DNA of 64,000 nucleotides from a virus (IMGVR_UViG_3300032030_004230), one strand, 5' to 3'; positions 400-57,768 are shown, counted from the first letter of the stretch. Notes: generated by a model from the sequence alone, not told the origin. Made by a program: numbers and translations.

Positions 400-1656
400 C
401 TAGAATGTTTTGTTAAAGATCTCTTCAAGACCGTTGGCTGAGTCAAAAACAAATGCCTGAGCTCTTGGTGAGCATTCAAATCCCATTTCTGCAGACCATG
501 CTGAACGACCAGACATAACAGGAAGTCTACGAACTACAAGCGGTCCAACATCAAGAACTTCTTCATGGTGCAAATGTCCAAGGAAGAAAGTCTTGAATTT
601 GCAGCTAGACCAATCTTCTGCTTCATTGCTCATAATACGCTGAACTTCTTTGATTTTTGTCTCATGGCCAAAGCCAAGCAAATTCTGTCCGAATTTAAAA
701 TAAGTTCTTGGGTACTCATCAGATGTAAGGTCAATATCTACAAAAGGCACACCAGAGTACTTGTAGTACAATGCTGCCATCAATGCATGAGAAGACTGCT
801 TATCATGATTTCCCTGTACAGAGAGAACATACACGTTCTTGAATGCTTTTCTAAGGAATTCAATTACTGTCACTGCAAGATGGACACCTGCATCAAAGAC
901 TGTGAAATGTCCAGCTTCATTGTCTTGGCGAGTTCCTTTAGTAGTAGTGCCAAATACATTGTCTGCATTGAAGAAGTCATTGCCAAGAGTAAGAAGAACA
1001 GAATCAGCTCCGCCAGACTTAACTGCTCTTGAAGTTGCGTCAGTCACATAAGCTTTAAGACGCTCTTCAGCAATCTTCATATCATATCTATTGCCTGAAG
1101 TGTTGTAGTCTGAAAGAAGACCATAGTGCAAATCAGCAATCGGAAGGACCAGCAAGCGACCATGATTTTCAATTTTCTCAACCTTAAGGTCCTCTGGCTT
1201 AAAATTGACAGCTTTGTCAATTGTCTTCATAATCTGCTCAGGTGCGTAATCTTTAAGATTTCTCGGTTCAACCCAGATTTTAGAGGCTACAAGAGTGTCT
1301 TTTCCGTTTTCCCAAAGTGAGCTTGTTGATTTTGTCACTTTCCAAAGATTTGTGTCAAAGCCATGTAATTCCAAAAGCTCTTTCTCGTCTGTAGTGTCTT
1401 TTGCAAGAAGTGCTTCAGAAACTGATTTACCAGTCTCAAAGTCGGTCTCACTTTTAAGCTTTTGTGATTCCTTATACAATGTAGGCTCTTCATGATTCTT
1501 CATGTACAAATACTTTTCTTTGTAAGTTTCTCCAGGCAGTTTTTTGAACAATGCAACTTCAGTTGAGTCTTTGTGTCTGTAAAGATATGATCTCAACTTC
1601 TTAGCATCAAATTCGCCTTCTGCATCGAAGAAATTTGTTAATTTTAGTGATGCCAC
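400..1656 (-). CDS. Calcineurin-like metallophosphoesterase
   Basis: Motifs IADLHYG, GNDFFNAD, QGNHD, GHLHH; GTG start with AGGAG RBS. Confidence 0.85.
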   Translation of the reverse strand: MASLKLTNFFDAEGEFDAKKLRSYLYRHKDSTEVALFKKLPGETYKEKYLYMKNHEEPTLYKESQKLKSETDFETGKSVSEALLAKDTTDEKELLELHGFDTNLWKVTKSTSSLWENGKDTLVASKIWVEPRNLKDYAPEQIMKTIDKAVNFKPEDLKVEKIENHGRLLVLPIADLHYGLLSDYNTSGNRYDMKIAEERLKAYVTDATSRAVKSGGADSVLLTLGNDFFNADNVFGTTTKGTRQDNEAGHFTVFDAGVHLAVTVIEFLRKAFKNVYVLSVQGNHDKQSSHALMAALYYKYSGVPFVDIDLTSDEYPRTYFKFGQNLLGFGHETKIKEVQRIMSNEAEDWSSCKFKTFFLGHLHHEEVLDVGPLVVRRLPVMSGRSAWSAEMGFECSPRAQAFVFDSANGLEEIFNKTF

Positions 1657-1720
1657 GAAATTCTCCTATTAAGAAATATTAACATTAGTCATACATTGAG
1701 AAGTCGAAACTAAATTTACA

Positions 1721-2824
1721 ATGATAGCACATTTAGCAAAGAGCTCTCACATTCTCTATGCAAATCTTAGCAGAAGTATAGACAAGTTTATTAAGAAACA
1801 TCAGGAATTGCTAGATATCTCTGGAATAGACATATCATACAATGACAAATACATTGACATACATAATAAAAATTTTCTTAAGAGTGTTCTCGTCTCATAT
1901 AAAGATGGTGCATTTTCTTTAGAGCCTATCAGTCCTCTTGAAGACTTACAGATAGCTCATAATTACATAGAGGTTGGCAGACTTCATAGATTTGGAAAAT
2001 TGCATAATGACAAAATTTGTGAGCAACTCTATAGAAGTCAAAACTTCATAAGAGACTGGAAGCATATCAGAATAGATAGAGAAACATTTGCTCTTGAGAA
2101 AGAAGACTTAGACTTCAGCGAAGCATACTCCGTTAATGTAGAAGACTCTTTTGATTTGATTCTGCAGTGGATTGAGAAATATAAGAGCCTTACAGAAAAA
2201 TATGTGTCTAAACAAATGTTTATTCCTACTTTGACAGGCGGTTTAGACACCAGAGCTCTTACATATTTCTGGAGAGACTTCATTGGAAAGCCAATTACAA
2301 AGTACTTCTTAAAAATAAACAAAACTGCAGATGCAAGAAAATATGCGGAAGATCCTGCTGCATATCTTTCAAAATATGGAGAGACAATTATGAATACAGC
2401 AAAACTTGAATTAGCAAAAGATGCGGTGGAGCATAAATTGTCGAGTCAAGTAGCAAAAAGACTTGGCAATTTAGAAGTACAGGCAAAGCTAGAGAATTTT
2501 CAAACAAGCTTAAGTGGTCTCGGAACTGATTCATCTCAATTCATAGAAAGAATGAACAATAAAGAATGGGTTAGACAAGTTGTTGGAACAAGATGTGCAA
2601 CAGAACGTTTAATCTATCCTTTCTATGATGATTTATTTTTGAGAATAAAATTTCATAGAGTGCATGAGCAAAGAATCCTATTTGCTCTGATGCTATGTCC
2701 CGACTTGCTAGACATTCCACTCGTATCTGACAGGAAGTTTGGCCAATATATGTTTAGTGATCTTGACTTAAACGTAATAAGTTATTGTGAGGAGCTTTTG
2801 AAAAAATGGAACTGGAAAAATTAA
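1721..2824 (+). CDS. PP-loop (asparagine synthase C-terminal-like) protein
   Basis: PTLTGGLDTR resembles the SGGxDS(R) PP-loop; later LSGLG and YPFYD match AsnB-type motifs. Confidence 0.55.
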   Translation: MIAHLAKSSHILYANLSRSIDKFIKKHQELLDISGIDISYNDKYIDIHNKNFLKSVLVSYKDGAFSLEPISPLEDLQIAHNYIEVGRLHRFGKLHNDKICEQLYRSQNFIRDWKHIRIDRETFALEKEDLDFSEAYSVNVEDSFDLILQWIEKYKSLTEKYVSKQMFIPTLTGGLDTRALTYFWRDFIGKPITKYFLKINKTADARKYAEDPAAYLSKYGETIMNTAKLELAKDAVEHKLSSQVAKRLGNLEVQAKLENFQTSLSGLGTDSSQFIERMNNKEWVRQVVGTRCATERLIYPFYDDLFLRIKFHRVHEQRILFALMLCPDLLDIPLVSDRKFGQYMFSDLDLNVISYCEELLKKWNWKN

Positions 2825-3027
2825 GACTAATAGAACTTTTTATCAAAACTTGCTCTATCATAGAAGAAAACAAATCTAAAATCTCTACTATTAAAATTGA
2901 GAAAGAAGCGAATGGTGAATTGTCTCTTTATGTCACTATAAATGATTCTTACAGTAAAGTTATGAAATTGCCAGTAACAAAATCATTTTTAGACAATTTT
3001 AGCTTTAACCTAGAAGATCTTAGCTAA
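2806..3027 (+). CDS. Hypothetical protein (73 aa)
   Basis: GAGGAG upstream; fills the gap between convergent genes. Confidence 0.6.
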   Translation: MELEKLRLIELFIKTCSIIEENKSKISTIKIEKEANGELSLYVTINDSYSKVMKLPVTKSFLDNFSFNLEDLS

Positions 3028-3964
3028 ATACAATTTTGCTTGTATGATTGCAAAAATTGCATCTATGCGTACAAGTTATTGGAATTCGCATAAGAGCCTT
3101 TAATGCTTCATCTGTAATAGTCTCTGCTGGTAGTCTGATACATGAAACATCGCATGCAGAAGAAATCATTCCGTCAGGTGTTACTCTAAGTTTAGACTCA
3201 TGTGCAAAACACTTTGCTCCGATAGTATTGATGCTTTGTATTGCTTCATATCTAGATATTTTTTGTTTGCTTCCATCTTTCAGAGTGACAATGAAGCACT
3301 TCTTTCTTTTCAATTCATTCTCTACTTCATCTGATGAAACTTCTTTAGCAGCTAATGTGTTGTCTTCATATCTCTCAGCTATCAATCCATGGTTAAGTTT
3401 TTCTCGCAGGCAATCATGAAGCCAGCTTCCAACTTGCTTTGAGTTCTCTCTTGTTTTCATTAGAATCACTTTTACAGAGCTTTTGTCTTCTACAATTTCT
3501 GAAAGCTTGCAAGCTTTTTCAAAGAATTCAGACCACTTTGCTTGAGAAGGGTGAAAGCTGCATGAAAGTCTAATATTGTTATAAGAACTCAAAAGTTCAG
3601 CATAGTAGTCGTATGATTGTGAGAAGTTTGTCACAATTCTTATATTGTCAAAGATGCTTGTATCCATCTTGTCAAAAAGCATCTTCTTTAATGGGAAGAT
3701 TGTCACCTCTCCGCCTATTAATGAAAAATCGTAGTTAATAGTTGGATTGATTAGCGATTTTATTCTTTTAGAAAGACCGCAAACAACTTCAGCATAATGT
3801 TCTATTAAGCTAATATCTATTTTGTCTAGCTTTCTTTTATGTCCTTGAATACAGTAAGGACATCTATAATTGCATGCATAAGAGGGCAGCCACTGCAAGT
3901 CAAAAGTGGGCTTTCTTTTATCTGAGAAAGCTGTCTCTAGCATCTTTATATCATTAGCACTCAC
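3020..3964 (-). CDS. Radical SAM protein with C-terminal twitch/SPASM-like Cys cluster
   Basis: CNYRCPYC, IGGE, VTN, SFH; C-terminal C..VTPDG..C..CTHRCNFC. Confidence 0.9.
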   Translation of the reverse strand: MSANDIKMLETAFSDKRKPTFDLQWLPSYACNYRCPYCIQGHKRKLDKIDISLIEHYAEVVCGLSKRIKSLINPTINYDFSLIGGEVTIFPLKKMLFDKMDTSIFDNIRIVTNFSQSYDYYAELLSSYNNIRLSCSFHPSQAKWSEFFEKACKLSEIVEDKSSVKVILMKTRENSKQVGSWLHDCLREKLNHGLIAERYEDNTLAAKEVSSDEVENELKRKKCFIVTLKDGSKQKISRYEAIQSINTIGAKCFAHESKLRVTPDGMISSACDVSCIRLPAETITDEALKALMRIPITCTHRCNFCNHTSKIVFS

Positions 3965-4814
3965 CTTTCACAATCTCCACTTTTCTTAAACCACATCCAC
4001 CACATTTGTAAGAGCCACTACAAACATGCGTCATCCCTGTCCACTTAAACAAGTCTTTCCCAAGCTCTCCAAGAAATACATTGCAGTTTTTGCAAGTACC
4101 AAGCCACATTTCATTATTTGGATATATCTTAATAGAGGAAAGATGACAAATTGCGTTTGTAGTGTCCACGCTTCTCAAAAAGTATTTGTCTTGCAAATCT
4201 TTTACACTGTCAACTTTAAGATTTTTAACGCAAAATTTTCTATATTTTTGGATTATCTGATCACTTACAACAAGATTCTTCTTTTCATCAAACTCAAATG
4301 ACACTCTCACATCGTCTTTCATCACAGTCTTCAAAATTTTGAATGTGTTCTCATTATCATTTGTCATTACAAAATTGCATAATATCTCACAACCTTTAGA
4401 TTTTAGATCGATGTATTTCTTTAAAAAATCTTCAATAGAGCAGAAGTTCTCGTGGAATGATGCACTTATGACTATTGGGTACTTTGAACGTAGGTACGTA
4501 TAGAATTCTGCAGTGTTAGAGAGATTTGTGTTAATTCTGAACTTAGCAATGTTTTTTGCATTTACAACATTAAGCACTTTATCTAAATCAAGCAAAGATG
4601 GTTCTCCACCAATTATTTGCACTACGTACTTTGTGTCACTGTTGTATTCTATGAAATTGTGCAGACTTTTTGCATTACTTAGAATCTTCTCCATAGAAGG
4701 ATATGCATCCTGCCTTGGGCTGTGCTTTACAAAACAATAGCTATAATTGTAGTTGCAGATGTCTGATAGTTCCCATTGAATAGTAAGAGATTTGATAGGC
4801 TTTTCTATGATCAT
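3954..4814 (-). CDS. Radical SAM-fold protein with broken cluster motif
   Basis: CNYNYSYC (second Cys is Tyr), IGGEP, NTN, SFH, Cys-rich C-terminus. Confidence 0.8.
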   Translation of the reverse strand: MIIEKPIKSLTIQWELSDICNYNYSYCFVKHSPRQDAYPSMEKILSNAKSLHNFIEYNSDTKYVVQIIGGEPSLLDLDKVLNVVNAKNIAKFRINTNLSNTAEFYTYLRSKYPIVISASFHENFCSIEDFLKKYIDLKSKGCEILCNFVMTNDNENTFKILKTVMKDDVRVSFEFDEKKNLVVSDQIIQKYRKFCVKNLKVDSVKDLQDKYFLRSVDTTNAICHLSSIKIYPNNEMWLGTCKNCNVFLGELGKDLFKWTGMTHVCSGSYKCGGCGLRKVEIVKGEC

Positions 4815-4840
4815 AAAGTCTTCCTCAATTCAATCAAATC

Positions 4841-5782
4841 TTAGCTAAATTTCACTCTTTTAGCATTTATTGGGAACGAATTGCAGAATAACTCTGCTTC
4901 ACATCTATGCTTTGTTGGCTTTATTACAATTTCATCTGTGTATAAGTTTCCCAAAATATATTTAGACAAATAGTTGCACAAGCCTTCTCGTACAATACCC
5001 TCTGGTCTTATTTGCACTGTATGACACTCACATTCAAAATCATGCATGTCAATTGAGCCAAACTCTGACTGTAGCTTAGAATAACTGTACTTATAGAAAT
5101 TTCCATCTTTTGTGATGAACTTCACATTGTTGTTTTTCATATTATTGGCTAAGTAGTCTAGAATCTTTCTCTCTTTTTCTTTGTCTTTCAGCTCAACTGG
5201 TGTTTTATTTTTATCGTACTCAATTCTAAATTTTATTGGAACATCTTTTATGTTGTTAATGAGTTCGCAACACATATCTATATTATTATTGTTCACAACA
5301 ACTCCGATGGTCATAAAGTTGTCAAAGCCCACTTTTCTTACTTTATTGAAAAACTCATTATAGTCTGGAACTGCTTCTTCGTGGTAACTTGCATATAGCT
5401 TTAGAGGAATCGACTTTTGCCTACAGAAGTCCTTTAGCTGAATATAGTATTCTGCGTCTCTGAAAAAATTAGACGTCACCATAAATGAAGAGATAAACTC
5501 ACTTGTAAGATTCTTCATTAGAGGGAGCAAATCATATATGCAAGGCTCTCCTCCGATAAACTTCATGTCCACAGGAATCTTACTACGTAGAATCATCTCA
5601 TTTATCTTTAATGAAAGCTTCTCCACTTCTTCTTGCGAAAGAAAAGAACTCTCTCTTGCATTCATAAGTTTATTGCTGCAAAAAGGACAATCATAATTGC
5701 AAAATTTTGTGATCTTCCACTCAGCAATCATAGAATTGCTATTTTTTCTATCTACAAATTCGACGACATCATTTATATTCAT
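4841..5782 (-). CDS. Radical SAM protein with twitch-like domain
   Basis: CNYDCPFC, IGGEP, TSN, SYH, C-terminal Cys residues. Confidence 0.9.
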   Translation of the reverse strand: MNINDVVEFVDRKNSNSMIAEWKITKFCNYDCPFCSNKLMNARESSFLSQEEVEKLSLKINEMILRSKIPVDMKFIGGEPCIYDLLPLMKNLTSEFISSFMVTSNFFRDAEYYIQLKDFCRQKSIPLKLYASYHEEAVPDYNEFFNKVRKVGFDNFMTIGVVVNNNNIDMCCELINNIKDVPIKFRIEYDKNKTPVELKDKEKERKILDYLANNMKNNNVKFITKDGNFYKYSYSKLQSEFGSIDMHDFECECHTVQIRPEGIVREGLCNYLSKYILGNLYTDEIVIKPTKHRCEAELFCNSFPINAKRVKFS

Positions 5783-6773
5783 TTTTCACTACCACTCTAT
5801 TTATCTTTATATTTGTCGGCAATTGATCGCACCTATTTTCATAAAGCTCCTTAAACTTTTCAAGACGCATAATCTCATGTCTTTCCATGTGATCAATCCA
5901 TTCTTCAATATTCTTGAAGTGCACTTTATTAATGTATTTGTTTCTGATTCTAAGAAGTTCTTGTTGCTTTTCTAAAGAGACTTCTGACAGCCACTTTTTG
6001 TTTAAGTAGAGCTCTTTCCCTTGAAGCATTGCTTGATGTCTTCGTTTTTGACATAATTCTAGATTAAGAGAGTCTTCTAGAAAATGCATTGTCATCTCTA
6101 CTCCTGAGTCTCTAGCAGGCGCAAAAGCCCAAGAGTATCTATTATTTTCAATCCATGCAATTGCAACAACATTGAAGCCATTCTCTATTTGTCTAATACA
6201 CTCTCTAATCAAGTTACCGCATTTGTTATGTCTACTGTTGTAATAGCTGTAGTCTGATACATTGCTACTATTGAACAGGATTATTACACTATTTCCAAGT
6301 TCAGATTTTAGTTTTTCTGCATAAGTATGGCAACCTGCGCCTTTACAACCGATGATTAGGTGATATGAGCCTGCTGGCTTGTAGCTGTACCACTTATCAA
6401 AGATGGGCTTAATCATGTCTGGAATAAAGTCTTTAAAGTAGTCTAGTTTCTCAATGTCAAATCTAAAATCATTCAAATGAAAAATGTTTTCTTTATTATT
6501 TGACAACACAATAAGTTCTGTGACATATTTGTAAACAATGTTTTTAAAGCAACAGCAGGTCTCCTCTGCAAATTCTTCAATTTGGGACTCCTCTATAATA
6601 ACAACAGCTTCTCTTACAGAGTTGTCGTAGTCTCTCAAGACATTGTAGCATTGTGACATATTTAAGAAGTATACTGCGTTATCTTGCACTGAGTCTATGT
6701 CAAAATCCTCTAGAGTTTTAGCTTCAAAGTCTTTGTATAGATTTGTTTTCTTCTCTGTAAACGAAAATATCAT
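5769..6773 (-). CDS. Hypothetical protein with degenerate P-loop kinase-like domain
   Basis: LIIGCKGAGCHTYAEKL resembles Walker A GxxGxGK[ST]T with Lys replaced; LELCQKR resembles a kinase lid. Confidence 0.5.
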   Translation of the reverse strand: MIFSFTEKKTNLYKDFEAKTLEDFDIDSVQDNAVYFLNMSQCYNVLRDYDNSVREAVVIIEESQIEEFAEETCCCFKNIVYKYVTELIVLSNNKENIFHLNDFRFDIEKLDYFKDFIPDMIKPIFDKWYSYKPAGSYHLIIGCKGAGCHTYAEKLKSELGNSVIILFNSSNVSDYSYYNSRHNKCGNLIRECIRQIENGFNVVAIAWIENNRYSWAFAPARDSGVEMTMHFLEDSLNLELCQKRRHQAMLQGKELYLNKKWLSEVSLEKQQELLRIRNKYINKVHFKNIEEWIDHMERHEIMRLEKFKELYENRCDQLPTNIKINRVVVKNEYK

Positions 6774-7336
6774 TCTTCAGCAACCTTCTTAAAAGTATCA
6801 AACATGTCTTCAAATAAGAAATTGTCTTTCAAGTATTCTAGGATTTTCTCATCATTTTTGACAATTCCATGACCTCTAAGCTTTATGATAGACTTGAACA
6901 AATCTTCATTATCAAAGTCATTTTGCCATTTATTTAAGATTAACTGAAATAAGTATCTGTACAGAAAATCTTTATAGTTGAATCTGATATCTGAATGTCC
7001 ACGCTTCTTAGCAACTCTTAGAGTCTCTTTCATTAGAGCATAATTCTCAATAAGAGGAAACTTGACAATAGAACTTTTCTTTTCAAGCAATAGACTAAAC
7101 AGCCCAACTACTTCATTAGACTCATTGATGTCTTCTGTAGAACACAAATATGGGAAGTGTCTTATATTCAACAAGAAATCATTTTCTGGCGAGGCTTTTA
7201 TAAATTGATAGCAATACTTAAAATAGTTTCTCTTATCAACTTTATTGTCTTCTACATGCAAGGCTGTCTCATTAAAAGACTTATTAAGATTCATTGCATT
7301 TACTCTAACAAGTTCAAACAATTTAAGATAAATCAT
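6770..7336 (-). CDS. Hypothetical protein inside the radical SAM operon
   Basis: 188-aa ORF tightly packed with both neighbours. Confidence 0.7.
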   Translation of the reverse strand: MIYLKLFELVRVNAMNLNKSFNETALHVEDNKVDKRNYFKYCYQFIKASPENDFLLNIRHFPYLCSTEDINESNEVVGLFSLLLEKKSSIVKFPLIENYALMKETLRVAKKRGHSDIRFNYKDFLYRYLFQLILNKWQNDFDNEDLFKSIIKLRGHGIVKNDEKILEYLKDNFLFEDMFDTFKKVAEE

Positions 7337-7342
7337 TCTCTT

Positions 7343-8323
7343 TTACCACCATTTTTCAGCATCTTTGCTTTCAGAAATAGAAAGGTCCTCAACTGTTTCC
7401 TCTACTTTAGACACACTTCTTACAAGTTCCAATCTGCACTTATCACCACTCTCACAGACAATTGGCTTTGTGCTAAGACTAAAATGATAGTCCTCATAAA
7501 TATTTCCAAGAGGCCTGTTGAGCCAAGCTCTGCATTGACCGTGAGCTACAAGACCATCAGGATTTATGTTTATCCCGCTTGAAGTGCAGTACATATCTTT
7601 CAAGACTTCATCTGCATAAGTCATTCTAAATCCGTGTATGTCGGTCTTTCGTATAAGACCTGAGTCTTCTTTTATTTCTATATGAAGTCTTCTTTCATCA
7701 TCTTGATTATTCAATCGTCTTAATAGACTTAAAGAATCTCTATACTTTTTATTTTTGACTAAAATAGCTTTATGAGTCTTATAGTCAAAGCAATTTAATA
7801 TTGTAGTGTGCTTGAAGTTTTTCGATAATTTTATAAGATTGCTTATATTGTCTTCTGTTAAGACAGAATTGACGGATCTTAAGTCTTTTATCTTCTTTGC
7901 TTTCTCTATAAAAGAGTCGATGTCTACTTGAGAATTATGAAATGAAGCTTTAAGCTTTAATTTAGGACCAAGAAATGCGCATAAGTCATTATAGTATTCT
8001 GCAGTGTTTGAGAGATTTGTCGTTAATGTCACTTTCCCTACTAGCTGATTGTCTATCAAAGGCTTAAGTATTCTTTTGCAATCAAAAAGAGTCATTTCTC
8101 CGCCAAGTACAATGAACTCTACATTTTTCACATTTATGAAATAAATCATTTTGCTTATTTGATTCGCAGCAAATTCAAGTCTTTCTTGCGTAGGATGACT
8201 CTCTGACTTCTGTCTTAATTCTCTTTGATAGCAGTACTCACATTTGTAATTACAGTCAAGAGTTGCAGTCCACTTAATTTTGTAGGCAAATTTACTGTCC
8301 TGATAGATATGCTGTATGCTCAT
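7343..8323 (-). CDS. Radical SAM protein with twitch-like domain
   Basis: CNYKCEYC, LGGE, TTN, SFH, YC..INPDG..C; start placed at ATGA overlap (8323). Confidence 0.9.
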   Translation of the reverse strand: MSIQHIYQDSKFAYKIKWTATLDCNYKCEYCYQRELRQKSESHPTQERLEFAANQISKMIYFINVKNVEFIVLGGEMTLFDCKRILKPLIDNQLVGKVTLTTNLSNTAEYYNDLCAFLGPKLKLKASFHNSQVDIDSFIEKAKKIKDLRSVNSVLTEDNISNLIKLSKNFKHTTILNCFDYKTHKAILVKNKKYRDSLSLLRRLNNQDDERRLHIEIKEDSGLIRKTDIHGFRMTYADEVLKDMYCTSSGININPDGLVAHGQCRAWLNRPLGNIYEDYHFSLSTKPIVCESGDKCRLELVRSVSKVEETVEDLSISESKDAEKWW

Positions 8324-9123
8324 TCTATTCTCTGAATATGACACATAGGACATCTGCTTTTAGAGCATGTCACCAAGTGTTCTTTTAGTATTTCTTCAGT
8401 ATTGTATAATAAGTCAATATGCCCAAACTGCACAAGCTTACAGTTATTTGCAAACAATCGTCCATCACTTTTTATTAAAAGACCATGTTGATAACAAGTT
8501 TTTCCTTGCATATTTTGCTGCTGATTTCTATATCTATTAAGCTCTTCTTCTGAAAAATCGAAATTAATGCTGCTAATGCTCTCATTCTTGTTTGGGTCAA
8601 ATCGTAGTTTTAAGTCTTTGTGTCTTTTTCTAAGTTCTTTCATATAATCAACATTTTTAGAAGTAACGACACACTCAATGAATGAATTTTCTAGAGACTT
8701 CTCTAAGCTTTCATACTTCTTAAAAAACATAGCTTCTTCTGCGAATTCTTCATGAAAGGATGCACAGAATAACAATTCAATTTTGCGATCTTCACACCAT
8801 TTGATAAGCTCTTTATAGTATGGTTCAGTATTGCTAAAATTTGTGTAAAACTCAAGAGACTTAAGATTGTCTACATATAAAGCATTCAAAATCTCTATTA
8901 GACTTTTAATGATAGAAAGTTCTCCGCCTGCTAGAACAAGCTTAATCGGCTTTTTCACTTTAAGAAGGATCTCTTTCAATTTTTTAGCTCTAGAAATAGC
9001 AGTATCTTCAGAGAAAACTTTACGCTTATCTGACTCTACTTGAGTGCAATAACTGCATCTAAAATTGCATTGTGTCGTTATCTGCCATTTGACAAGAAAA
9101 TAGCTAAAATTATCTGTAAGCAT
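8320..9123 (-). CDS. Radical SAM protein with twitch-like domain
   Basis: CNFRCSYC, AGGE, YTN, SFH, C..IKSDG..C..CSKSRCPMC; start placed at MLTDNF. Confidence 0.9.
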   Translation of the reverse strand: MLTDNFSYFLVKWQITTQCNFRCSYCTQVESDKRKVFSEDTAISRAKKLKEILLKVKKPIKLVLAGGELSIIKSLIEILNALYVDNLKSLEFYTNFSNTEPYYKELIKWCEDRKIELLFCASFHEEFAEEAMFFKKYESLEKSLENSFIECVVTSKNVDYMKELRKRHKDLKLRFDPNKNESISSINFDFSEEELNRYRNQQQNMQGKTCYQHGLLIKSDGRLFANNCKLVQFGHIDLLYNTEEILKEHLVTCSKSRCPMCHIQRIE

Positions 9124-10171
9124 TTTGTACAAGAGTCTCCTTGTGCACAAGAATTTTCTTTAAGTCTTCTTTGTCTCTGCACATGCTAGTGTTTCCAAAA
9201 GCTGTGCAGAATTTATGCTTTAGCTTTCCAGTGTTCTGCCAATCTATTGTGGTATGACATTGAATCGGCTCAGTCGGCATCGTGTATTCATTAGTCAAAA
9301 GACTTCCTATTCTATTTTCAGGCTTTCCGCACCATTGACAGCCCGCTAGTCTTAAAGAGCCATCTGCTTCAATTCTCAATCCGTCTAATCCTGCAGAACA
9401 ATAAAATCCCTCTGGGTCTAGCCCGCCGTCTTTGACACTATTTATAAGCTCTATATTTGAGCTAAACTCCAAGACTGAACCGTCTTTCATTGTGACAAAA
9501 AAGTAGGGCTTTACTGATTTTTTCATTTGAGAATTCAAAAAATCAACAATTTTCATAGTCTTTTCTGAGATGCTTGAATTCTCATTATCTGCAATTCTCT
9601 CTACAGTTGGCTGAATCACTACATTTGGATATTTCTTTGTTAGCTCTAAGTATTTCAGAATGTTCTCATCATTTACTACGCACTTAGCTCTAGACCTTCT
9701 GTTATTCCCTTGATTTATACGGGAAAGCTTTTGCATAAACTCATCAGGGTCACAAAACTCTAAATGCATAGATGCTGTGATAGTGAATTCACAGCCTCGA
9801 TTCTCACAGTAATCTCTTAATCTTAGCCAATAGTCTAGTGAAGATGAAAGATTTGTAACAATAAGAACTTTCTTCAATTGTTTAGACTCTATTTGTTCTA
9901 AGACTTCTATCAAATTGAAGTAACCAACTTCTCCGCCAATAAGATGAAGCATAAAAGGCTTTTCTGGAAAGTATGTCTTTGCTAGATTGTCAATGTTTTT
10001 TGCAATTGTCAACAAATTCTCTTTTGGTGTATTCTCTACAGCATTCTTTACATTATTTGCCATGTAGCAATATGAGCATCTGTAATTGCACCAATTTGTC
10101 ATCTTCCAAGAGAACTTAAAAAGAACACTGTTTCTTTCTATAGAAACAATATCTTTCATATCAATCATCAA
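9110..10171 (-). CDS. Radical SAM protein with twitch-like domain
   Basis: CNYRCSYC, IGGE, VTN, SMH, YCSAG..IEADG..C. Confidence 0.9.
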   Translation of the reverse strand: MMIDMKDIVSIERNSVLFKFSWKMTNWCNYRCSYCYMANNVKNAVENTPKENLLTIAKNIDNLAKTYFPEKPFMLHLIGGEVGYFNLIEVLEQIESKQLKKVLIVTNLSSSLDYWLRLRDYCENRGCEFTITASMHLEFCDPDEFMQKLSRINQGNNRRSRAKCVVNDENILKYLELTKKYPNVVIQPTVERIADNENSSISEKTMKIVDFLNSQMKKSVKPYFFVTMKDGSVLEFSSNIELINSVKDGGLDPEGFYCSAGLDGLRIEADGSLRLAGCQWCGKPENRIGSLLTNEYTMPTEPIQCHTTIDWQNTGKLKHKFCTAFGNTSMCRDKEDLKKILVHKETLVQNAYR

Positions 10172-10172
10172 T

Positions 10173-11513
10173 CTAGAACACCTCTACATTACAAGAGAAC
10201 ATACAAATAGAATTAGGACAACTTATCACATCGTCTTTTATAGAGAAATCAAAGTCTTTTATATCTGCTATCTTAGTTTTTTGCTTGCAAGACCTGCGAT
10301 ATACGCTCCCATCAATGTCAATATAAAGACCATTAGAGCGACAGTCATGTCCAACAGACACAAAGCCAGATATCTGAGAATGATGAATTTTCTCTCCATT
10401 CAAGAAAATATCTTCTTTCTTGTTAGATACATCAAAACTCTTCTTAGCAATGATGTTATCTTGTCTATCTCTTAAGTAATCTAGTGATATTTTTATTTTA
10501 TCATTTTTGACATTCAGAAGTTTCTCAATTGTGTTAGAATTCTCATCTGTAGAAACGCATTCAATATACAGCTTATCTACAAAATTGGCGACACCTTCTG
10601 CTTTCGAAATGAATTCATTCTCATCACACTCAGTCTCATGCAAGGAGCATGAAAGCTCTAATTTTACATTTCTTGAATGAAGATAACTAGCAAGCTCTTC
10701 AAAATATGAAAATGACTTTGAGAAGTTTGTCGATACATAGACTGCTTTCAGAGCGCTAGTCTTTATTTCACTCATTAGAGCTTTTAAGTCTATAAGAGTA
10801 ACTTCTCCGCCGATGAGCTCTAGTCTGAAGGGTTTTGTCATTCTACTGAGACAATGAGCTCTCTCTATCAGAGTTGAGATGCCCGGAAATTTTTTGTCTT
10901 GCAAGTCTTTCCGTATGCAATAAGAACAGTGATAGTTGCATTCATTAAAAAGACGCCATTTTATATAAAACATAGGGTCTTCTAGACAAACATCTTTTAT
11001 TGCATGAGAGCTGTCAATATTCGCTTTTGTGCTTTCTACTTTGCAGTCTTTACTTGTGCATCTCTCACATTGCAATTTCGGCTCTGGAGCTTTTTCAGAA
11101 AGACTACAAACAAATTCTTTTTTATCACAAGTGCCATAAAAGAACTTATCATTAATAATTGAGACAGTGTCCACTCTATTTGCGCAAATAAAACTGTCTT
11201 CTAGCTCTATGTCTAGCAAAGCCTCATCTTTAGAGCATCTTTCGACAAGTTCTTTTAATGTCACTGTTGTGAAAGGACAATTGTCTGACCCATAAGATGT
11301 TCTTATCAGTCTCTTATTATGAAATGCTGCAGCTACATAACGTAATTTCTTAGACATGTCAGAAGCTATCTCTGCAGAACAGTTAAAGTACACAACTATA
11401 AGCTTGAAAGCATTTATTTTGTCAAAGTACTTATTAAGATTTTCAATTGCAGTGTCAGACAGCTCTTTATCTAAGCTAATCTGAACTTGAAGTCTTCTTC
11501 TCGAGTAAATCAT
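10173..11513 (-). CDS. Radical SAM protein with an extra degenerate N-terminal radical SAM/twitch-like unit
   Basis: CNYHCSYC near residue 190; the N-terminal ~170 aa lack CxxxCxxC but end in a twitch-like Cys pattern (FICANR..GTC..CERCTSKDC). Confidence 0.85.
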   Translation of the reverse strand: MIYSRRRLQVQISLDKELSDTAIENLNKYFDKINAFKLIVVYFNCSAEIASDMSKKLRYVAAAFHNKRLIRTSYGSDNCPFTTVTLKELVERCSKDEALLDIELEDSFICANRVDTVSIINDKFFYGTCDKKEFVCSLSEKAPEPKLQCERCTSKDCKVESTKANIDSSHAIKDVCLEDPMFYIKWRLFNECNYHCSYCIRKDLQDKKFPGISTLIERAHCLSRMTKPFRLELIGGEVTLIDLKALMSEIKTSALKAVYVSTNFSKSFSYFEELASYLHSRNVKLELSCSLHETECDENEFISKAEGVANFVDKLYIECVSTDENSNTIEKLLNVKNDKIKISLDYLRDRQDNIIAKKSFDVSNKKEDIFLNGEKIHHSQISGFVSVGHDCRSNGLYIDIDGSVYRRSCKQKTKIADIKDFDFSIKDDVISCPNSICMFSCNVEVF

Positions 11514-12444
11514 CTAAAACTTTCCTATCTCTTGCAATGCTAAAATCACCGCATAGACTGCACAGACCATTTGCACTTATGCATTTAGTCGGTTTCAAAT
11601 CTTTTATATGATATTCAGAAATTGGTGTGTACTCATAAGATCGCACACAATAGCTGTTCTTTGCAACTTTGTCTTTGTTCACATAAATGTACGTAATTCC
11701 AGCTGTGCAATAAAAATCTGTTGACGGGATTGCCTTCTCTGGATATCTGTTTATGAGTTTACTTCTTGTTAGAGTAGTATCTTCTGAGTTATCTGAATAG
11801 ATAATTTTCCATCTTGGCTTTGACACAGAAGACTGAATGTTGAACTCTTTAGCAAAGTCTTCATTTTGCGATTTGTCAAACTCTAACAGAAGCTCTGCAT
11901 CGTACTTTTTGCAAGTGTCAATCACTTTCTGCAGAAGATGCTTACTTTCTGGTGCAATCACAAACTCGATCTTTAATTGATAGACATATTCAGGACTACA
12001 AGCGTCTTTGAACTTTTTGAATTTTGAAACGAAATCTTCTATGTCTACATACTCATTGTGCAAACTTGCTGTCATAGACAATAGAATTTCTCTGCTTTCA
12101 AGATACTTTGCAAAGTCTATGTATGACTCTAATGAATTAGAGAAATTTGTCGTAATATTTACTTTTTTAAGATTTTTTGAGCTGATGCATGATACAAGTT
12201 TTTTGAGATCAAAATAAGTGACTTCTCCACCAATCAAATTGATTTTAGTCGGTCTTCCAGATTCTTCAATAAGTCGATTAATCTCTGGCGCAGTTCTTAG
12301 AACTCTTTCAAAGTCTAATTTTGTGTCTTGCCCTTTGAATTTCCGTAAGCAGTATGAGCATCTGTAATTGCACCATTCTGTAAGTCTCCACTTGATAGTA
12401 AAGAGACTTTCATGATGGATAATTGCTGAAATAGACTTCTCCAT
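11476..12444 (-). CDS. Radical SAM protein (first gene of the operon)
   Basis: CNYRCSYC, IGGE, TTN, SLH, YCTAG..C..CSLC; start at MEKSIS just below a GTTAAT motif. Confidence 0.9.
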   Translation of the reverse strand: MEKSISAIIHHESLFTIKWRLTEWCNYRCSYCLRKFKGQDTKLDFERVLRTAPEINRLIEESGRPTKINLIGGEVTYFDLKKLVSCISSKNLKKVNITTNFSNSLESYIDFAKYLESREILLSMTASLHNEYVDIEDFVSKFKKFKDACSPEYVYQLKIEFVIAPESKHLLQKVIDTCKKYDAELLLEFDKSQNEDFAKEFNIQSSVSKPRWKIIYSDNSEDTTLTRSKLINRYPEKAIPSTDFYCTAGITYIYVNKDKVAKNSYCVRSYEYTPISEYHIKDLKPTKCISANGLCSLCGDFSIARDRKVLDDLLEKKTSSSD

Positions 12445-12474
12445 AAAAAAAAATATTAACAAAACTAAATTATC

Positions 12475-13401
12475 ATGGAAGAATCAAAAATTAGCTCTTT
12501 AACTACCAGTGAACTTGAAAAAATCTATAAAGAGTACACTCATAATCAAGTCTGGTATGAGTACCCATTCTTTTCAGCACTAGAAACGATTAGATTAGTA
12601 GATAGCGTTATCGACAACAAGTACTCTATTATAGAGCAAAGTGCTGGCTTAGCAGGGATGTCTCTATTGTTCAATCTTCTTTCAGCAAAAGTGAAAAACA
12701 CTTATATCATTGACAATAGAACACTCAATCAGTATCTCCCCGTGATTAAAAACTTAGATGTGCCAGCTTATTTTGATACTTTTGCTAAAGAACATAATAT
12801 GAAAGTTAGATATGGAGATCTTCTAACAAAAGATGACTTTCATCGAAAAGGTAAAGAACCTCATGTGTATCTTATTTATTGTTATGGCGAAAATATTTTC
12901 AAATTTTTGAACACAATGCAAGAAAACAACAATTTGCAGACAAATGACTTAATTGTTGTGTCTACTACAAATGAAGCAAGAGTTGGCAATGATCCACACA
13001 TGTGTCTCTGTAAGTATTTAGAGATTAGCAAAAATGTAAAACTTGTAAGAAGAACTTCTTCAGGTGGTAACACAATTTCAGTGTTTCAGATCATTGATAG
13101 AAGTGTAGACTTCTCAAAAGACTTTGTTGTGCAGATGGAAACATTGCGAGTTAATATACTTGAAAAATTTAAGCCTGAAAACTTGCAGGATTCTGATTTC
13201 ACAAAATATGAGAATCTTACACAGCATCTTATAGATAAGCAAAAGTTCTATGTAACAACAAACTATACGACTATCTTTAAGAGTAAAGGCTACACAGACA
13301 AGCAAATTGAAAAGCTATCTCTTCAAGAGAAAAGATTCGCTAAAGACTTTATAAGAAGCTTTTATTATACAATTAGAGGAACAGTGTTTAGAGATGCATA
13401 A
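12475..13401 (+). CDS. Hypothetical protein, possibly degenerate class I SAM-methyltransferase fold
   Basis: IIEQSAGLAGMS ... YIID ... LQTNDLIVV loosely resembles methyltransferase motifs; function weakly supported. Confidence 0.4.
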   Translation: MEESKISSLTTSELEKIYKEYTHNQVWYEYPFFSALETIRLVDSVIDNKYSIIEQSAGLAGMSLLFNLLSAKVKNTYIIDNRTLNQYLPVIKNLDVPAYFDTFAKEHNMKVRYGDLLTKDDFHRKGKEPHVYLIYCYGENIFKFLNTMQENNNLQTNDLIVVSTTNEARVGNDPHMCLCKYLEISKNVKLVRRTSSGGNTISVFQIIDRSVDFSKDFVVQMETLRVNILEKFKPENLQDSDFTKYENLTQHLIDKQKFYVTTNYTTIFKSKGYTDKQIEKLSLQEKRFAKDFIRSFYYTIRGTVFRDA

Positions 13402-14164
13402 TGACTTTGTAATTGATGATTCAATATATTCTGTGCCAATCGAGAATGCATATGAAGTTTTGCATGATTGGTGGTACGACATTCTAGAGCAGTTAAGAGG
13501 CAAAATCATAAGATTTGACATAACTGCTGGAATGGACACAAGATTCTTTTTGTCTTGGCTTAGTAGAGGCATTGCAAAAGAGCTTTACTTCAATAATAGA
13601 CCTTATAAATTTGAAGGTGAAGAGAAAGCAAAAAAAGAGCCAAGCTTGAGAGCACATGGTACGTACGGAATGGATGCTCTAGGCTACATGTTTGGCATTA
13701 TGCTTGATGCTAAGCCAGGTGCCAAATGGCAAGATTGCGAACTTTGCTTATCAGGTGCAAGAGCTTCTCAAATTTTAGGCAAAGATCCTGACAGAATAGA
13801 TGAGTGTACAAAAAACGGCATCACTTTCATAATTGAAGAATGTCGCAGACACAAAACTCTGTCTAAACCAAATTTTATGAATCCATTCTTTCATAAAAAT
13901 ATTTTTATGGTAGACTTCCATAAGGAAATGAAGCTTCTTTCTACAGTGTTGTACTTGATTTACATGCCAGAATGGGCTCTGAGATTTCCTTTTAAGTCGA
14001 TGACATATGACCCATACTACACAATCTGGGATTTGCCTGTAGAGCGAGCTAGAGCTATAATCTCTCAGTGGCCATTGAATGATTTTGAGAAAGAGAACTA
14101 TTCTAAAAATATGAAGCTTTATGACTCAATGACTAAGAGAAAAGCGTCGGTTTTTAGATTGTAA
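13394..14164 (+). CDS. PP-loop (asparagine synthase-like) protein, paralog of 1721..2824
   Basis: DITAGMDTR, LSG, NPFF motifs parallel those in 1721..2824. Confidence 0.5.
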   Translation: MHNDFVIDDSIYSVPIENAYEVLHDWWYDILEQLRGKIIRFDITAGMDTRFFLSWLSRGIAKELYFNNRPYKFEGEEKAKKEPSLRAHGTYGMDALGYMFGIMLDAKPGAKWQDCELCLSGARASQILGKDPDRIDECTKNGITFIIEECRRHKTLSKPNFMNPFFHKNIFMVDFHKEMKLLSTVLYLIYMPEWALRFPFKSMTYDPYYTIWDLPVERARAIISQWPLNDFEKENYSKNMKLYDSMTKRKASVFRL

Positions 14165-14176
14165 AAAGAGGCTTCA

Positions 14177-14338
14177 ATGGATTGGAAATTACTAAAAAGA
14201 CATTCTGACACTCTGCTAGAGTTATGGAAGACTCCTACAAAGTATCTTGTTTGCAAAACATACGAAAGATTTTACAAGTTCTTTGAGACTCATAATGAAG
14301 CTCTTGCGTATTTTAATGCTAAAAGGCAAGAGAGTTAA
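14177..14338 (+). CDS. Small hypothetical protein (53 aa)
   Basis: Not in ORF track; GAGG RBS, MDWKLLKRHSDTLLELWK...KRQES*, fills the intergenic gap. Confidence 0.6.
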   Translation: MDWKLLKRHSDTLLELWKTPTKYLVCKTYERFYKFFETHNEALAYFNAKRQES

Positions 14339-14347
14339 TATCTTGAA

Positions 14348-14902
14348 ATGGAAGTTTCTAAAGATATTCAAGCAATTTTCTCACAAAGTCCAATGAACTT
14401 TTTAGGCTGGTGTGCAGAAAATCTAAAGCACGGATTCTTAGATATGATGGGACTTCAGTATTTTTCAGCTACGCCTAGATGGAGAATGCTTTGGAGACTT
14501 TCTAAGGGCACAAGTTTCGCTGACAAAAAAATCGGAATTGTCTATGATTTTGTAGAATTCCAAAGAGCATACTTTAATTTCAATAACATAGAGAATCGTA
14601 CATTCTTCTTTATAGACAATACAAAAAATGTTTCACATGCTTTTTCAGTTTTTGCATTAGACATAGACGGCAAAAAGACTTGGTACTGGTTTGAAAATGA
14701 ATGGCTAGTCTTTACTGGAATACGAAAAATTAAGACTGCAAAAAGTCCGCTAGACCTAGTGAAGCTCCAACTACAAGCATTCAAAAGTTTTTATGATGCA
14801 AAAGACATTCATTGCTGGGAGTACTTCGAGCCAAAAGAAGACTCAGTAGATTTTTCTCTATTCTACAAAAACATTACAGAAAATGGAGTTTCTCTCTTCT
14901 AG
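14348..14902 (+). CDS. Transglutaminase-like fold protein, catalytic Cys apparently absent
   Basis: KIGIVYDFVEF..SHAF..WYWFE resembles the G-x-C-x-D..H..WFE pattern with Cys replaced by Val. Confidence 0.45.
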   Translation: MEVSKDIQAIFSQSPMNFLGWCAENLKHGFLDMMGLQYFSATPRWRMLWRLSKGTSFADKKIGIVYDFVEFQRAYFNFNNIENRTFFFIDNTKNVSHAFSVFALDIDGKKTWYWFENEWLVFTGIRKIKTAKSPLDLVKLQLQAFKSFYDAKDIHCWEYFEPKEDSVDFSLFYKNITENGVSLF

Positions 14903-14906
14903 AAAT

Positions 14907-15287
14907 ATGCTCACATCTTTTTTTGACAATATTGATCGTATCAAATATCCCGTTTCTATTTCTCGTTTTAGTCCATCTTGGTATGAAGGACCAAAGTATC
15001 TAGATGTTGCCCCATCTGAAAGTCTTTTGAATTGGTACCATAATGAAAAGAAAAATGGTGCTAATGAGTACAATCTTCAAAAAGAATACGAACAAAAATA
15101 CATAAATGAGACACTTAGTCAATTAAATCCAGAAAAAGTCTGGAATGACATTTGTAGTCTCTATCCTGAAGCTGATTCAAGAGAAATCACTCTTCTTTGC
15201 TATGAAGCACCCGGAAAATTTTGTCATAGGCATCTATTAGCTGCTTGGCTTAAAAAGCATGGCTATCAAATAAAGGAGAAACTGTAA
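14907..15287 (+). CDS. DUF488-like protein
   Basis: TSFF, SISR..P, VAPS, LLCYE..FCHR motifs. Confidence 0.75.
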   Translation: MLTSFFDNIDRIKYPVSISRFSPSWYEGPKYLDVAPSESLLNWYHNEKKNGANEYNLQKEYEQKYINETLSQLNPEKVWNDICSLYPEADSREITLLCYEAPGKFCHRHLLAAWLKKHGYQIKEKL

Positions 15288-15289
15288 TT

Positions 15290-15724
15290 ATGCAAATACA
15301 GCAAACTGTCGGTGATCCGAAGAAGCTCTTAGAAAACATCTCATACAATATGAAAGAATTCTCTAAAAAAATCCAGTCTATGACTTTTGAAAAGAAAGAC
15401 GGAACTACTTTCTCAAAAGCTCTTGGCTTCAAGCTCTCTATTTCTAGAGACTACGAATTGTATTTAGACTCAGGCAAAATTCGATTCGGTCAAATTGAGA
15501 TTCTTTTTGATCTTCAAGACCCAATTTTTTGGGACAAACTCATGCTTGCTATGATGTCCGACTTTGAGTTCTTTAGTCATATTAGCATAAATGGCTCAAA
15601 AGTAGAATCTCTTGAAGTGACAAATGTTTGCACTTACATTTGTGAAGATGGAAAGTCTTACAATGAAGCTGACATCAAAGCAGCGAAAATTACAGCTGAC
15701 AACGAAATTTGCTGGTCACTTTAG
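15290..15724 (+). CDS. Hypothetical protein
   Basis: 144-aa ORF, AGGAG upstream. Confidence 0.7.
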   Translation: MQIQQTVGDPKKLLENISYNMKEFSKKIQSMTFEKKDGTTFSKALGFKLSISRDYELYLDSGKIRFGQIEILFDLQDPIFWDKLMLAMMSDFEFFSHISINGSKVESLEVTNVCTYICEDGKSYNEADIKAAKITADNEICWSL

Positions 15725-15966
15725 ACATCAAGAGAAATATCTTCTTCAATAAAGTTAATTTTCTCTCTAGCTAATCCTGACTCATAAGCCATCTTTAGTA
15801 TAGAAAGCAAATCTGTTTCTGCTTGTCTCAAAGATGGCATTTTCTTTGCAGCTTCTGAGTCTATGTAAATTGGACTTTTCAGAAGCTCAGTCCCATCCTT
15901 GTCTACTACAAGAAACAATAAAGTATCTTCTTCATTTTTGCATTTTTGCACTTTTACTGATATCAT
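15721..15966 (-). CDS. Hypothetical protein
   Basis: Start at ATGA overlap with the large upstream gene (MISVKVQK). Confidence 0.65.
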   Translation of the reverse strand: MISVKVQKCKNEEDTLLFLVVDKDGTELLKSPIYIDSEAAKKMPSLRQAETDLLSILKMAYESGLAREKINFIEEDISLDV

Positions 15967-28960: not shown

Positions 28961-29719
28961 ATGATTCAAATATTCTCAGTTTCAGTTCTAGACAATGGAT
29001 TTTTTGATTTTGAGAAAAATGAGCCCACAGGTGAATTAGAGAAATTTTGCTTCAATTCATGGAAGTCTTTAATAAAAGCTTATCCAAAGTATTTCAATCA
29101 AGAAATAAAAGTATTTGGTCCATGTGACAAAGAATATGAATACATGAAGAAATTTAAGAGCATTTTTAGCACTACTAGAACTGAAGTGCTTGCAGACATT
29201 TATAGATTTTATCTACTGTCATTGTATGATGATATGCTTTATCTTGATTTTGACATTTTAGTGACAAATCCTGAAAAAGCATTGCAAAGCATTCTCAAGA
29301 ATAATATTCTTTTCTATAGAAAAGGTGAAATAAGCATCTTGCAAAGAAAGACTGGATCTAGCAATGTGTTCTTTTCAGAAGTCTTAAAGCATTACGAAGA
29401 CTCTCTTTCAAGCAATCGAGATATTGAAGCTGACTGCGAGACATTATCAAAAGTACATGGCAACTATATAGATGATTGCAACTTCGAGACTTGTGCTAAT
29501 TTAGGATTTTTTCATTTGTCTCTATTCCAGAGTGAGAAAGAAAAATTCATAAAATGCATAAATAAAAAGAAGATTTTCCTTTCTATCTCTAGATCAAGAG
29601 TGAAACAATCTACTTTGTCACTTGATTTTTTGTCTTTAGTGAATGCTACTTACAGCTCGTTAGAGAACTTTTTGGAGCAAACAAATATACAAAACATTAA
29701 AATTATAGAGAGCAGTTAA
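28961..29719 (+). CDS. DXD glycosyltransferase-like protein (GT32/OCH1-like)
   Basis: CFNSWK..ADIYRFYLL....LYLDFDI matches the D-x-x-R..YxDxD pattern. Confidence 0.6.
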   Translation: MIQIFSVSVLDNGFFDFEKNEPTGELEKFCFNSWKSLIKAYPKYFNQEIKVFGPCDKEYEYMKKFKSIFSTTRTEVLADIYRFYLLSLYDDMLYLDFDILVTNPEKALQSILKNNILFYRKGEISILQRKTGSSNVFFSEVLKHYEDSLSSNRDIEADCETLSKVHGNYIDDCNFETCANLGFFHLSLFQSEKEKFIKCINKKKIFLSISRSRVKQSTLSLDFLSLVNATYSSLENFLEQTNIQNIKIIESS

Positions 29720-57746: not shown

Positions 57747-57768
57747 AGAGTTAATTAAGAATATAACT

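Follow-up and report, generated by a model that had tools for sequence, protein, structure and literature searches.

The subject of this study is a block of radical S-adenosylmethionine (SAM) genes in a 64,000-nucleotide stretch of DNA from a virus (IMGVR_UViG_3300032030_004230), the whole of which we refer to as the window. Ten co-directional open reading frames (ORFs) occupy 3020-12462 on the minus strand, either overlapping or separated by gaps of at most 26 nt (Table 1). Eight encode radical SAM paralogs, and the remaining two encode a protein with a P-loop-kinase fold and a 188-aa protein that had no match in Pfam, NCBIfam or PHROGs. Judged from gene packing alone, the ten genes would form one operon. 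The eight paralogs can be aligned end to end, with pairwise identities of 20-27% in a joint alignment, and their joint profile gives each of them 300-356 bits and matches no other ORF in the window, a likeness well beyond chance. A previous interpretation of the same DNA, made from sequence alone (the sequence-only reading), had described eight tandem radical SAM paralogs at 3020-12444, interrupted only by a kinase-like gene and one unknown gene. Both elements of this description are upheld, the first by the joint alignment, the profile scores and matches to Pfam Radical_SAM, and the second by recovery of a kinase fold at a template modelling (TM) score of 0.7 and the lack of a match for the 188-aa protein. 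The window is AT-rich (33-39% GC), reads cleanly with genetic code table 11 and contains no tRNA genes. The start of paralog 8 is likely the ATG at 12444, although the longest ORF reaches a TTG at 12462; for paralog 5, an alternative ATG at 9123 would abolish the overlap with the neighbouring gene.

Table 1. Genes of the radical SAM block and of its flanks, with positions counted from the first letter of the window
Feature	Position	Strand	Remarks
AsnB-type PP-loop ligase-like protein	1721..2824	+	367 aa; TGGLDTR; two domains; no N-terminal Cys nucleophile
Radical SAM paralog 1	3020..3964	-	314 aa; CNYRCPYC; GGE; C-terminal Cys cluster
Radical SAM paralog 2	3954..4814	-	286 aa; degenerate CNYNYSYC; GGE and C-terminal Cys retained
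Radical SAM paralog 3	4841..5782	-	313 aa; CNYDCPFC
P-loop kinase-fold protein	5769..6773	-	334 aa; Walker A GCKGAGCHT, non-canonical
188-aa protein without family match	6770..7336	-	
Radical SAM paralog 4	7343..8353	-	336 aa; CNYKCEYC
Radical SAM paralog 5	8320..9150	-	276 aa from TTG; CNFRCSYC
Radical SAM paralog 6	9110..10171	-	353 aa; CNYRCSYC; own ortholog clade
Radical SAM paralog 7	10173..11513	-	446 aa; complete enzyme after Cys-rich extension of ~175 aa
Radical SAM paralog 8	11476..12444	-	322 aa from ATG; CNYRCSYC; best conserved paralog; modelled
Class-I methyltransferase-fold protein	12475..13401	+	308 aa; fold-level lead
Shorter PP-loop paralog	13394..14164	+	256 aa; TAGMDTR; no N-terminal domain

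Common to all eight paralogs are the motifs W-x5-CN(Y/F)xCx(Y/F)C, GGE, (T/S)N and S-x-H, together with at least four C-terminal cysteines, the middle cluster Cys of paralog 2 being excepted. The invariant alignment positions are W25, C31, N32, C38, GGE, N113, S136, H138 and two of the C-terminal cysteines. The GGE motif for SAM binding is thus invariant in eight of eight, and the CX3CX2C cluster motif is intact in seven, paralog 2 having CX3YX2C. The shared motifs listed in the sequence-only reading hold for GGE, TN, SxH and the Cys cluster; its spacing of W-x4-C has to be corrected to W-x5-C, and the substitution of Tyr for a cluster Cys in paralog 2 departs from the shared pattern.

The Pfam Radical_SAM model (PF04055) matches every paralog (E 5e-7 to 4e-3), mostly below its gathering score of 29.5 bits: paralog 8 reaches 30.4 bits, paralog 3 29.3 bits and the others 17.6-25.7 bits. 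By these scores, the family has diverged from the seed of the Pfam model. In NCBIfam, two models come out on top, prokaryotic viperin and STM4011, with 25-44 bits where 180-200 are required. Specifically, the viperin model (NF038283) gives at best 44.2 bits against 180 and covers only the N-terminal 90-100 residues, while the STM4011 family radical SAM model (NF038073) gives at best 42.7 bits against 200. The N-terminal twitch model N_Twi_rSAM (NF033640) matches paralog 5 alone (25.2 bits, cut-off 170), and unlike in that family the Cys-rich domain of the eight is C-terminal. Dozens of SPASM, MoaA and QueE models in NCBIfam match weakly, mostly in the first 100 residues; in PHROGs, the matches are only to generic "radical SAM domain" families; and among solved structures, the best profile matches of the eight include MoaA and SkfB at E ~1e-6. 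Taken at the level of sequence, the eight proteins are one family, outside every subfamily model of Pfam and NCBIfam. Mapping to unrelated housekeeping families, a possibility raised beforehand, is not seen, all NCBIfam matches being far below cut-off.

The fold was examined in an AlphaFold2 model of paralog 8 (pLDDT, the predicted local distance difference test, 92.4), built on 47 homologs. The model has a partial TIM-barrel fold with a core that starts at about residue 20 and a first helix at residue 51. In comparisons with Foldseek and VIA-align, EpeE, MoaA, anSME, BlsE, SuiB, viperin and SkfB are tied at Z 13.5-14.9; because all of the top structures lie within about one Z unit, the comparison singles out no particular family. 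Each paralog has at least four C-terminal cysteines in the pattern C-x17-22-C ... C-x4-8-C. Across the 47 homologs, C252, C272 and C294 are invariant and C301 is nearly so, and the C-terminal beta-rich part of the model superposes on the auxiliary-cluster domains of MoaA, EpeE and anSME, to residues 303-315. The SPASM model PF13186 matches none of the eight at E <=0.1, and the motif CX2CX5CX3C was not found in their C-terminal sequences. [quoted passage not shown] By this published definition, the motifs, the C-terminal cysteines and the model identify the eight as twitch-type radical SAM enzymes with predicted cluster binding, in agreement with the class to which they had been assigned before, and the four or five C-terminal cysteines would fit one auxiliary cluster.

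With BtrN, MoaA, BlsE, EpeE, anSME and SkfB, the family shares a partial TIM-barrel with CX3CX2C and GGE and a C-terminal beta-hairpin Cys domain, the VIA alignments to twitch and SPASM enzymes spanning ~230-270 residues at Z 13.7-14.9. It differs from those enzymes in that identity is only 12-19%, no single best match stands out and the SPASM motif is missing.

Two paralogs are atypical. In paralog 2, a TAT codon (Tyr) stands where the other paralogs carry the middle cluster Cys, and a word-based homolog search across 5.8 billion clusters returned only paralog 2 itself. It is probably either a partner without catalytic activity or a copy that was damaged recently. The extension of paralog 7 (residues 1-175) is weakly similar to the twitch-like C-terminal domain (profile E 0.14) and also to residues 200-246 of paralog 2 (BLAST E 6e-4); it may be the remnant of a ninth copy that was fused in frame.

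The age of the array was addressed with a tree of 78 sequences, for which homolog sampling was biased towards paralog 8. Paralogs 6 and 8 each fall in a separate clade with sequences from other contigs (100% support in the Shimodaira-Hasegawa-like approximate likelihood ratio test), and paralogs 1-5 and 7 form long unresolved branches. An approximately unbiased (AU) test rejects the eight as a single clade (difference in log-likelihood 353, p 4e-102). Together, the rejection and the separate ortholog clades indicate that the array is old and that at least two of its members are older than this phage lineage. The claim of an old expansion is therefore sustained, also by the 20-27% identity, whereas duplication within the phage, for which a phylogeny had been proposed as the check, is rejected for two of the paralogs at least, 6 and 8. 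Orthologs of paralog 6 occur in P0032 (54% identity) and L084 (47%), and paralog 8 has 63 word-level homologs, some of which, with 52-57% identity, are encoded on contigs of 270 and 282 kb. Both paralogs are conserved at 47-57% across many contigs, with invariant motifs. Profile scans detect further relatives in the hundreds, more remote than these, in viral, metagenome and metagenome-assembled genome (MAG) contigs. Against a set of 50,697 phage records, megablast of the block and tblastn of paralog 4 gave no match, and neither did a scan of IMG/VR with paralog 8 as a single-protein query.

The longer PP-loop gene is convergent with the array and faces its 3′ end; on the other side, the methyltransferase-fold gene is divergent from the array and overlaps the shorter PP-loop gene. 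The two PP-loop proteins belong to one family, with the common motif [ST][GA]GxD[ST]R, and orthologs in the rumen contig L085 have the canonical loop SGG(L/F)DSR. A six-sequence profile of this family finds at least 526 clusters at 50% identity in a library of 1.8 billion proteins, and 16 members that were scanned contain no Pfam domain, PF00733 included. With a 44-sequence profile, the top matches are QueC, GMP synthase and NAD synthetase (NadE), with the PP-loop aligned and marginal E values of 0.05-0.4.

For a model of the longer protein (pLDDT 78), the top 12 VIA matches are all AsnB, ASNS, TsnB9, beta-lactam synthetase or carbapenam synthetase (Z 8.2-9.9), and residues 21-338 align with residues 59-455 of AsnB across both domains, whereas other PP-loop enzymes cover only the C-terminal half (Z ~7). 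The N-terminus reads M-I-A-H and lacks the glutaminase Cys nucleophile. Because the N-terminal Cys is absent and the two-domain fold of AsnB is present, the protein is predicted to be a glutamine-independent AsnB-type ligase, and on sequence and model together the flanking genes encode adenylating ligases of this type that lie outside the catalogued members. The two-domain architecture, the PP-loop in place and the absent N-terminal Cys are shared with the glutaminase-less AsnB homologs, such as beta-lactam synthetase, carbapenam synthetase and TsnB9; the differences are the lack of a PF00733 match and the loops TGGLDTR and TAGMDTR in place of SGGxDS. A word-based homolog search with the longer protein returned only itself, and tblastn against the phage records returned nothing. 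A physical link with radical SAM chemistry is provided by P0078, a 613-aa protein in which the AsnB-like family (residues 7-357) is fused to a Radical_SAM/Fer4_12 domain (residues 377-477).

The other partners are less well defined. In the kinase-fold protein, residues ~130-334 resemble AAA_33/zeta-toxin P-loop kinases at the level of fold (TM 0.7 by target); its Walker A sequence, GCKGAGCHT, lacks the canonical Lys-Ser/Thr, and no relative was found among the phage records (tblastn, E 0.01) or PDB sequences. The assignment of a class-I methyltransferase fold comes from the ESM Atlas and is a lead only. Pfam returned no family for the flanking and neighbouring genes.

The pairing of an AsnB-like gene with radical SAM genes of this family recurs in five other viral or metagenome contigs (L082, L084, L085, L242 and L243). 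The order is radical SAM, AsnB-like, radical SAM in L084 and L243, and radical SAM followed by AsnB-like in L082 and L242. In L085 and a further contig, L081 (both from rumen, GC 25-29%), the genes can be read through only if TGA encodes Trp, and in that code each contig has four full-length family members. L084 and L243 are likewise low-GC phage contigs in which in-frame TGA is read as Trp (table 4). L085 also encodes three AsnB-like paralogs, two further radical SAM proteins, one of which matches SPASM PF13186, and a carbamoyltransferase of the NodU/CmcH type; L081 encodes a carbamoyltransferase and a methyltransferase. The carbamoyltransferase match in these relatives' arrays is to PF16861, at E 6e-46. 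In L242, the radical SAM and AsnB-like genes are separated by a gene (7882-8664) that is homologous (E 2e-12) to the window gene at 28961-29719.

A second group of relatives consists of lone family members, in L001, L003 and L083, which adjoin very large or tail-type ORFs: the neighbour is pre-neck-appendage-like in L001 and minor-tail-like in L083. The module of L243 is similarly flanked by ORFs of 983 and 1612 aa. The giant ORFs show no detectable similarity between contigs or to a 1735-aa protein encoded in the window. In addition, two phage-like contigs binned with rumen or gut Treponema, L161 (from a Treponema sp. MAG) and L172 (from an uncultured Treponema MAG), share genes with the window: paralog 8 has an ortholog there at 41% identity, and the window gene at 57709-58170 has a homolog at 48%. 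This hints at a spirochaete (Treponema) host.

The remainder of the window gives some indication of what kind of phage carries the block. Proteins identical to those of the window are found on a contig of 326,542 bp, so the window comes from a very large uncultured phage-like genome. The gene at 46903-47745 (-) matches the T4 deoxycytidine monophosphate (dCMP) hydroxymethylase gp42 at E 1.4e-36, compared with E 1e-3 for thymidylate synthase. A TAGT-like glycosyltransferase is encoded at 29730-30692 (+; 36 bits against a cut-off of 27.5) and a UDP-galactopyranose mutase (Glf) at 37552-38685 (-; E 1e-73). [quoted passage not shown] The hydroxymethylase, TAGT-like, Glf and nucleotide-pool genes and the reductase activase together suggest that the phage probably makes sugar-bearing hydroxymethylcytosine (hmC) DNA and infects an anaerobe; the sugar is perhaps a furanose. 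Directly upstream of the TAGT-like gene, and not paralogous to it, is the homolog of the L242 gene mentioned above (28961-29719, +, 252 aa), which contains a DxD-like stretch. A GT32-type DXD glycosyltransferase was considered for this protein and its L242 homolog and was rejected, as PF04488 found nothing in the L242 record.

What, then, might be the substrate of the block? The reading that we put first, though with somewhat less than even confidence, is that the block is a radical tailoring line for a sugar-bearing substrate. In such a line, which would act late on its substrate, each radical SAM step would begin with reductive cleavage of SAM to a 5′-deoxyadenosyl radical and abstraction of one specific C-H hydrogen, with the auxiliary cluster as a possible electron acceptor. 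The outcome could be oxidation, epimerisation, dehydration or formation of a C-C or C-X bond, as for BtrN, BlsE, DesII and EpeE. The AsnB-like enzymes would adenylate a carboxylate and convert it to an amide, and hydroxyls would be decorated by kinase-, methyl- and, in relatives, carbamoyl-transferases. There are precedents on phage DNA for two of the enzyme classes: the AsnB homolog CmoY ligates an amine to a carboxylate (PMC12783734), and M6 gp53 is a radical SAM enzyme that acts there (PMC8989533). The likeness of the window ligases to CmoY would be one of class, as AsnB homologs.

A sugar-bearing substrate is favoured for several reasons: (i) no RiPP recognition element (RRE; RiPP, ribosomally synthesised and post-translationally modified peptide) and no precursor peptide were found; (ii) relatives carry a carbamoyltransferase; (iii) L242 links the module to a gene located beside a TAGT-like glycosyltransferase; and (iv) sugar-modifying twitch enzymes are among the best structural matches. 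With regard to the first point, the paralog 8 model has no N-terminal helical domain and Pfam finds no PqqD match in the eight, and no small ORF rich in Cys, Gly or Ser lies within 1600-16000, so that any precursor would be separate or distant. More specifically, the phage could use the module to edit its own DNA, at the sugar on hydroxymethylcytosine or at a side chain of sugar origin. We regard this narrower version as unlikely when taken by itself; the hmC-linked sugar is still the top single candidate substrate, with glycans of the virion or cell surface at much the same probability. The sequence-only reading had proposed a multi-step tailoring pathway acting on virion proteins or glycans, a small peptide or the DNA-linked sugar. 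The AsnB-type partner and the tailoring enzymes of relatives fit a tailoring role, in which the eight may work either one after another on a single substrate or in parallel on several, and among the proposed substrates the evidence leans towards a sugar-bearing one and away from a classical small RiPP.

Several observations weigh against a sugar-bearing substrate. No glycosyltransferase or sugar-nucleotide gene lies inside the block itself, and a distance of 17-35 kb separates it from the TAGT-like, Glf and hydroxymethylase genes. The records of five relatives (G001-G005) contain no ThyA-family or TAGT gene; two of these five are at least 95% complete, and both have a single family member and no AsnB-like gene. 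The peptide-modifying enzymes EpeE, anSME, SuiB and SkfB tie in Z with the sugar- and nucleotide-modifying ones, and the single-copy or minimal modules that stand beside giant or tail-type ORFs would fit a protein substrate equally well. Finally, the DXD glycosyltransferase reading of 28961-29719 failed in the PF04488 test of its L242 homolog, and the kinase-fold protein is without the Walker A residues of a canonical kinase.

The strongest competitor, which we consider somewhat unlikely, is the modification of a protein or peptide. Under this reading, residues would be crosslinked, oxidised or converted to the D-form by the radical SAM enzymes, and the AsnB-like enzymes would make isopeptide or lactam bonds in the way known from lasso cyclases. 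The target could be a protein of the virion, for instance a giant one resembling a fibre, or else a peptide that has escaped recognition. The four peptide-modifying enzymes among the tied structures are consistent with this possibility, and one of them, anSME, acts on proteins without an RRE. Very large or tail-type ORFs adjoin family members in L001, L003, L083, L242 and L243, and in the window the 1735-aa ORF (15963-21170) is only 3.5 kb from the array; the giant ORFs are, on the other side, dissimilar between contigs and to the window protein. Beta-lactam and carbapenam synthetases, which are glutaminase-less AsnB homologs, also speak for this possibility. Opposed to it are the absence of an RRE domain from the model, the lack of a precursor-like small ORF in 1600-16000 and the carbamoyltransferase of relatives, which is atypical of peptide tailoring.

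We consider it improbable that the block hypermodifies a nucleobase side chain in the style of thymidine or 5-carboxymethylcytosine, with the kinase activating the hydroxymethyl group, the AsnB-like enzyme attaching either an amine or an amino acid, and the product being rearranged by the radical SAM enzymes. The dCMP-hydroxymethylase-like gene and the rich dNTP-pool toolkit of the window are in keeping with this scheme, a gene for an Mre11-type exonuclease adjoins the block, and all three enzyme classes have precedents on phage DNA (PMC5889632, PMC8989533, PMC12783734). Known clusters of this kind comprise a 5-HMUDK kinase, amino-acid transfer and tailoring enzymes dependent on pyridoxal phosphate or flavin adenine dinucleotide or of the radical SAM type (PMC5889632, PMC8989533). 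Like them, the window combines a kinase-fold protein with radical SAM enzymes in a phage that would make a hydroxymethylpyrimidine; unlike them, it has a degenerate P-loop, cytosine as the base and another type of radical SAM enzyme, twitch-type rather than spore-photoproduct-lyase-like as in M6 gp53, and no homology was detected by tblastn in the phage records, where the kinase-fold and AsnB-like proteins match nothing and which may include M6 and ViI, phages with hypermodified thymidine. Moreover, no ThyA-family gene was present in the DNA of module-bearing relatives that was examined, and eight radical steps on one base side chain would be unprecedented.

Less probable again is a metabolic boost, or the synthesis of a cofactor or small molecule, for the infected anaerobic host. 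The same role was proposed for the radical SAM genes of CP220 and CPt10, virulent phages of the low-oxygen gut host Campylobacter, in which Timms et al. (2010, PMC2853527) counted 11 and 12 radical SAM proteins and described a central module of five genes. In the CPt10 record at 73.8-79.5 kb, the radical SAM genes gp086, 087, 089, 090 and 092 are nearly tandem, with few unknown genes between them. The resemblance to the window lies in the many short radical SAM genes (~195-320 aa), the CN(F/Y/Q)xCxYC-type motifs and the Cys-rich C-termini. At the level of sequence, the relationship is distant only: gp090 gives 47.8 bits with the window profile, over profile positions 21-277, and tblastn finds ~29% identity over 97 aa. 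No AsnB-like partner was found in the CPt10 region, where a putative amidinotransferase is present instead. CP220 and CPt10 modify guanine and are not known to carry hmC genes. MoaA, which is among the top structural ties, agrees with a cofactor role, but the matches to cofactor-pathway families are all 10- to 30-fold under cut-off, and eight paralogs of one family without other pathway genes are unlike any known cofactor route. The closest relatives are also mostly on viral or metagenome contigs, with more distant ones in many bacterial MAG contigs. Least probable of all, and by our estimate very improbable, is a decaying array under relaxed selection with no joint function, as might be suggested by paralog 2 with its lost cluster Cys and no detected ortholog, the long branches of paralogs 1-5 and 7 and the possible ninth-copy remnant in paralog 7: all ten frames are intact and tightly packed, catalytic motifs and auxiliary cysteines are complete in seven of the eight, and paralogs 6 and 8 are well conserved.

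Radical SAM enzymes carry out chemistry that is otherwise very hard to achieve. In the literature on phage radical SAM arrays, we found the CP220/CPt10 paper alone; phage modules with multiple radical SAM genes have been known since 2010, none with an assigned function. The present block is among the largest such arrays, and what is new is the family, the size of the array, the AsnB-type partner, which is conserved and in one protein fused, and the reach into rumen phages that recode TGA. The ligase is a concrete handle that is missing from the CP220/CPt10 case. The partner, its fusion and the carbamoyl- and methyl-transferases of relatives narrow the likely chemistry to carboxylate amidation and C-H activation on a hydroxyl-rich substrate, and paralog 8 and the ligase would be a manageable pair to reconstitute under anaerobic conditions. 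Should the block act on phage DNA or on a glycan of the virion, gut and rumen megaphages would possess a further, new layer of chemistry for anti-defence or host recognition. Should it act on the sugar of hmC DNA in particular, there would be no earlier case of twitch-type radical SAM chemistry on DNA-linked glycans, and no known DNA-hypermodification pathway would come near it in length.

Finally, we note some features of the region beyond the array. The 1735-aa protein (minus strand) had no match in Pfam, PHROGs or cultured phages (tblastn, the same records). Upstream of its gene lies a gene for a 501-aa protein (21175-22680, -), which has a run of ~10 serines and only a weak PHROG match, to a family of unknown function; both proteins could be virion proteins. 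A partner protein ending in poly-Ser/Cys was considered for the array and was rejected, as the sole poly-Ser run is the one inside the 501-aa protein gene, which belongs to a separate transcription unit. Three genes off the array, on the divergent strand (14883-15287, +), is a gene for a DUF488 protein (PF22751, "active DUF488-N3a").

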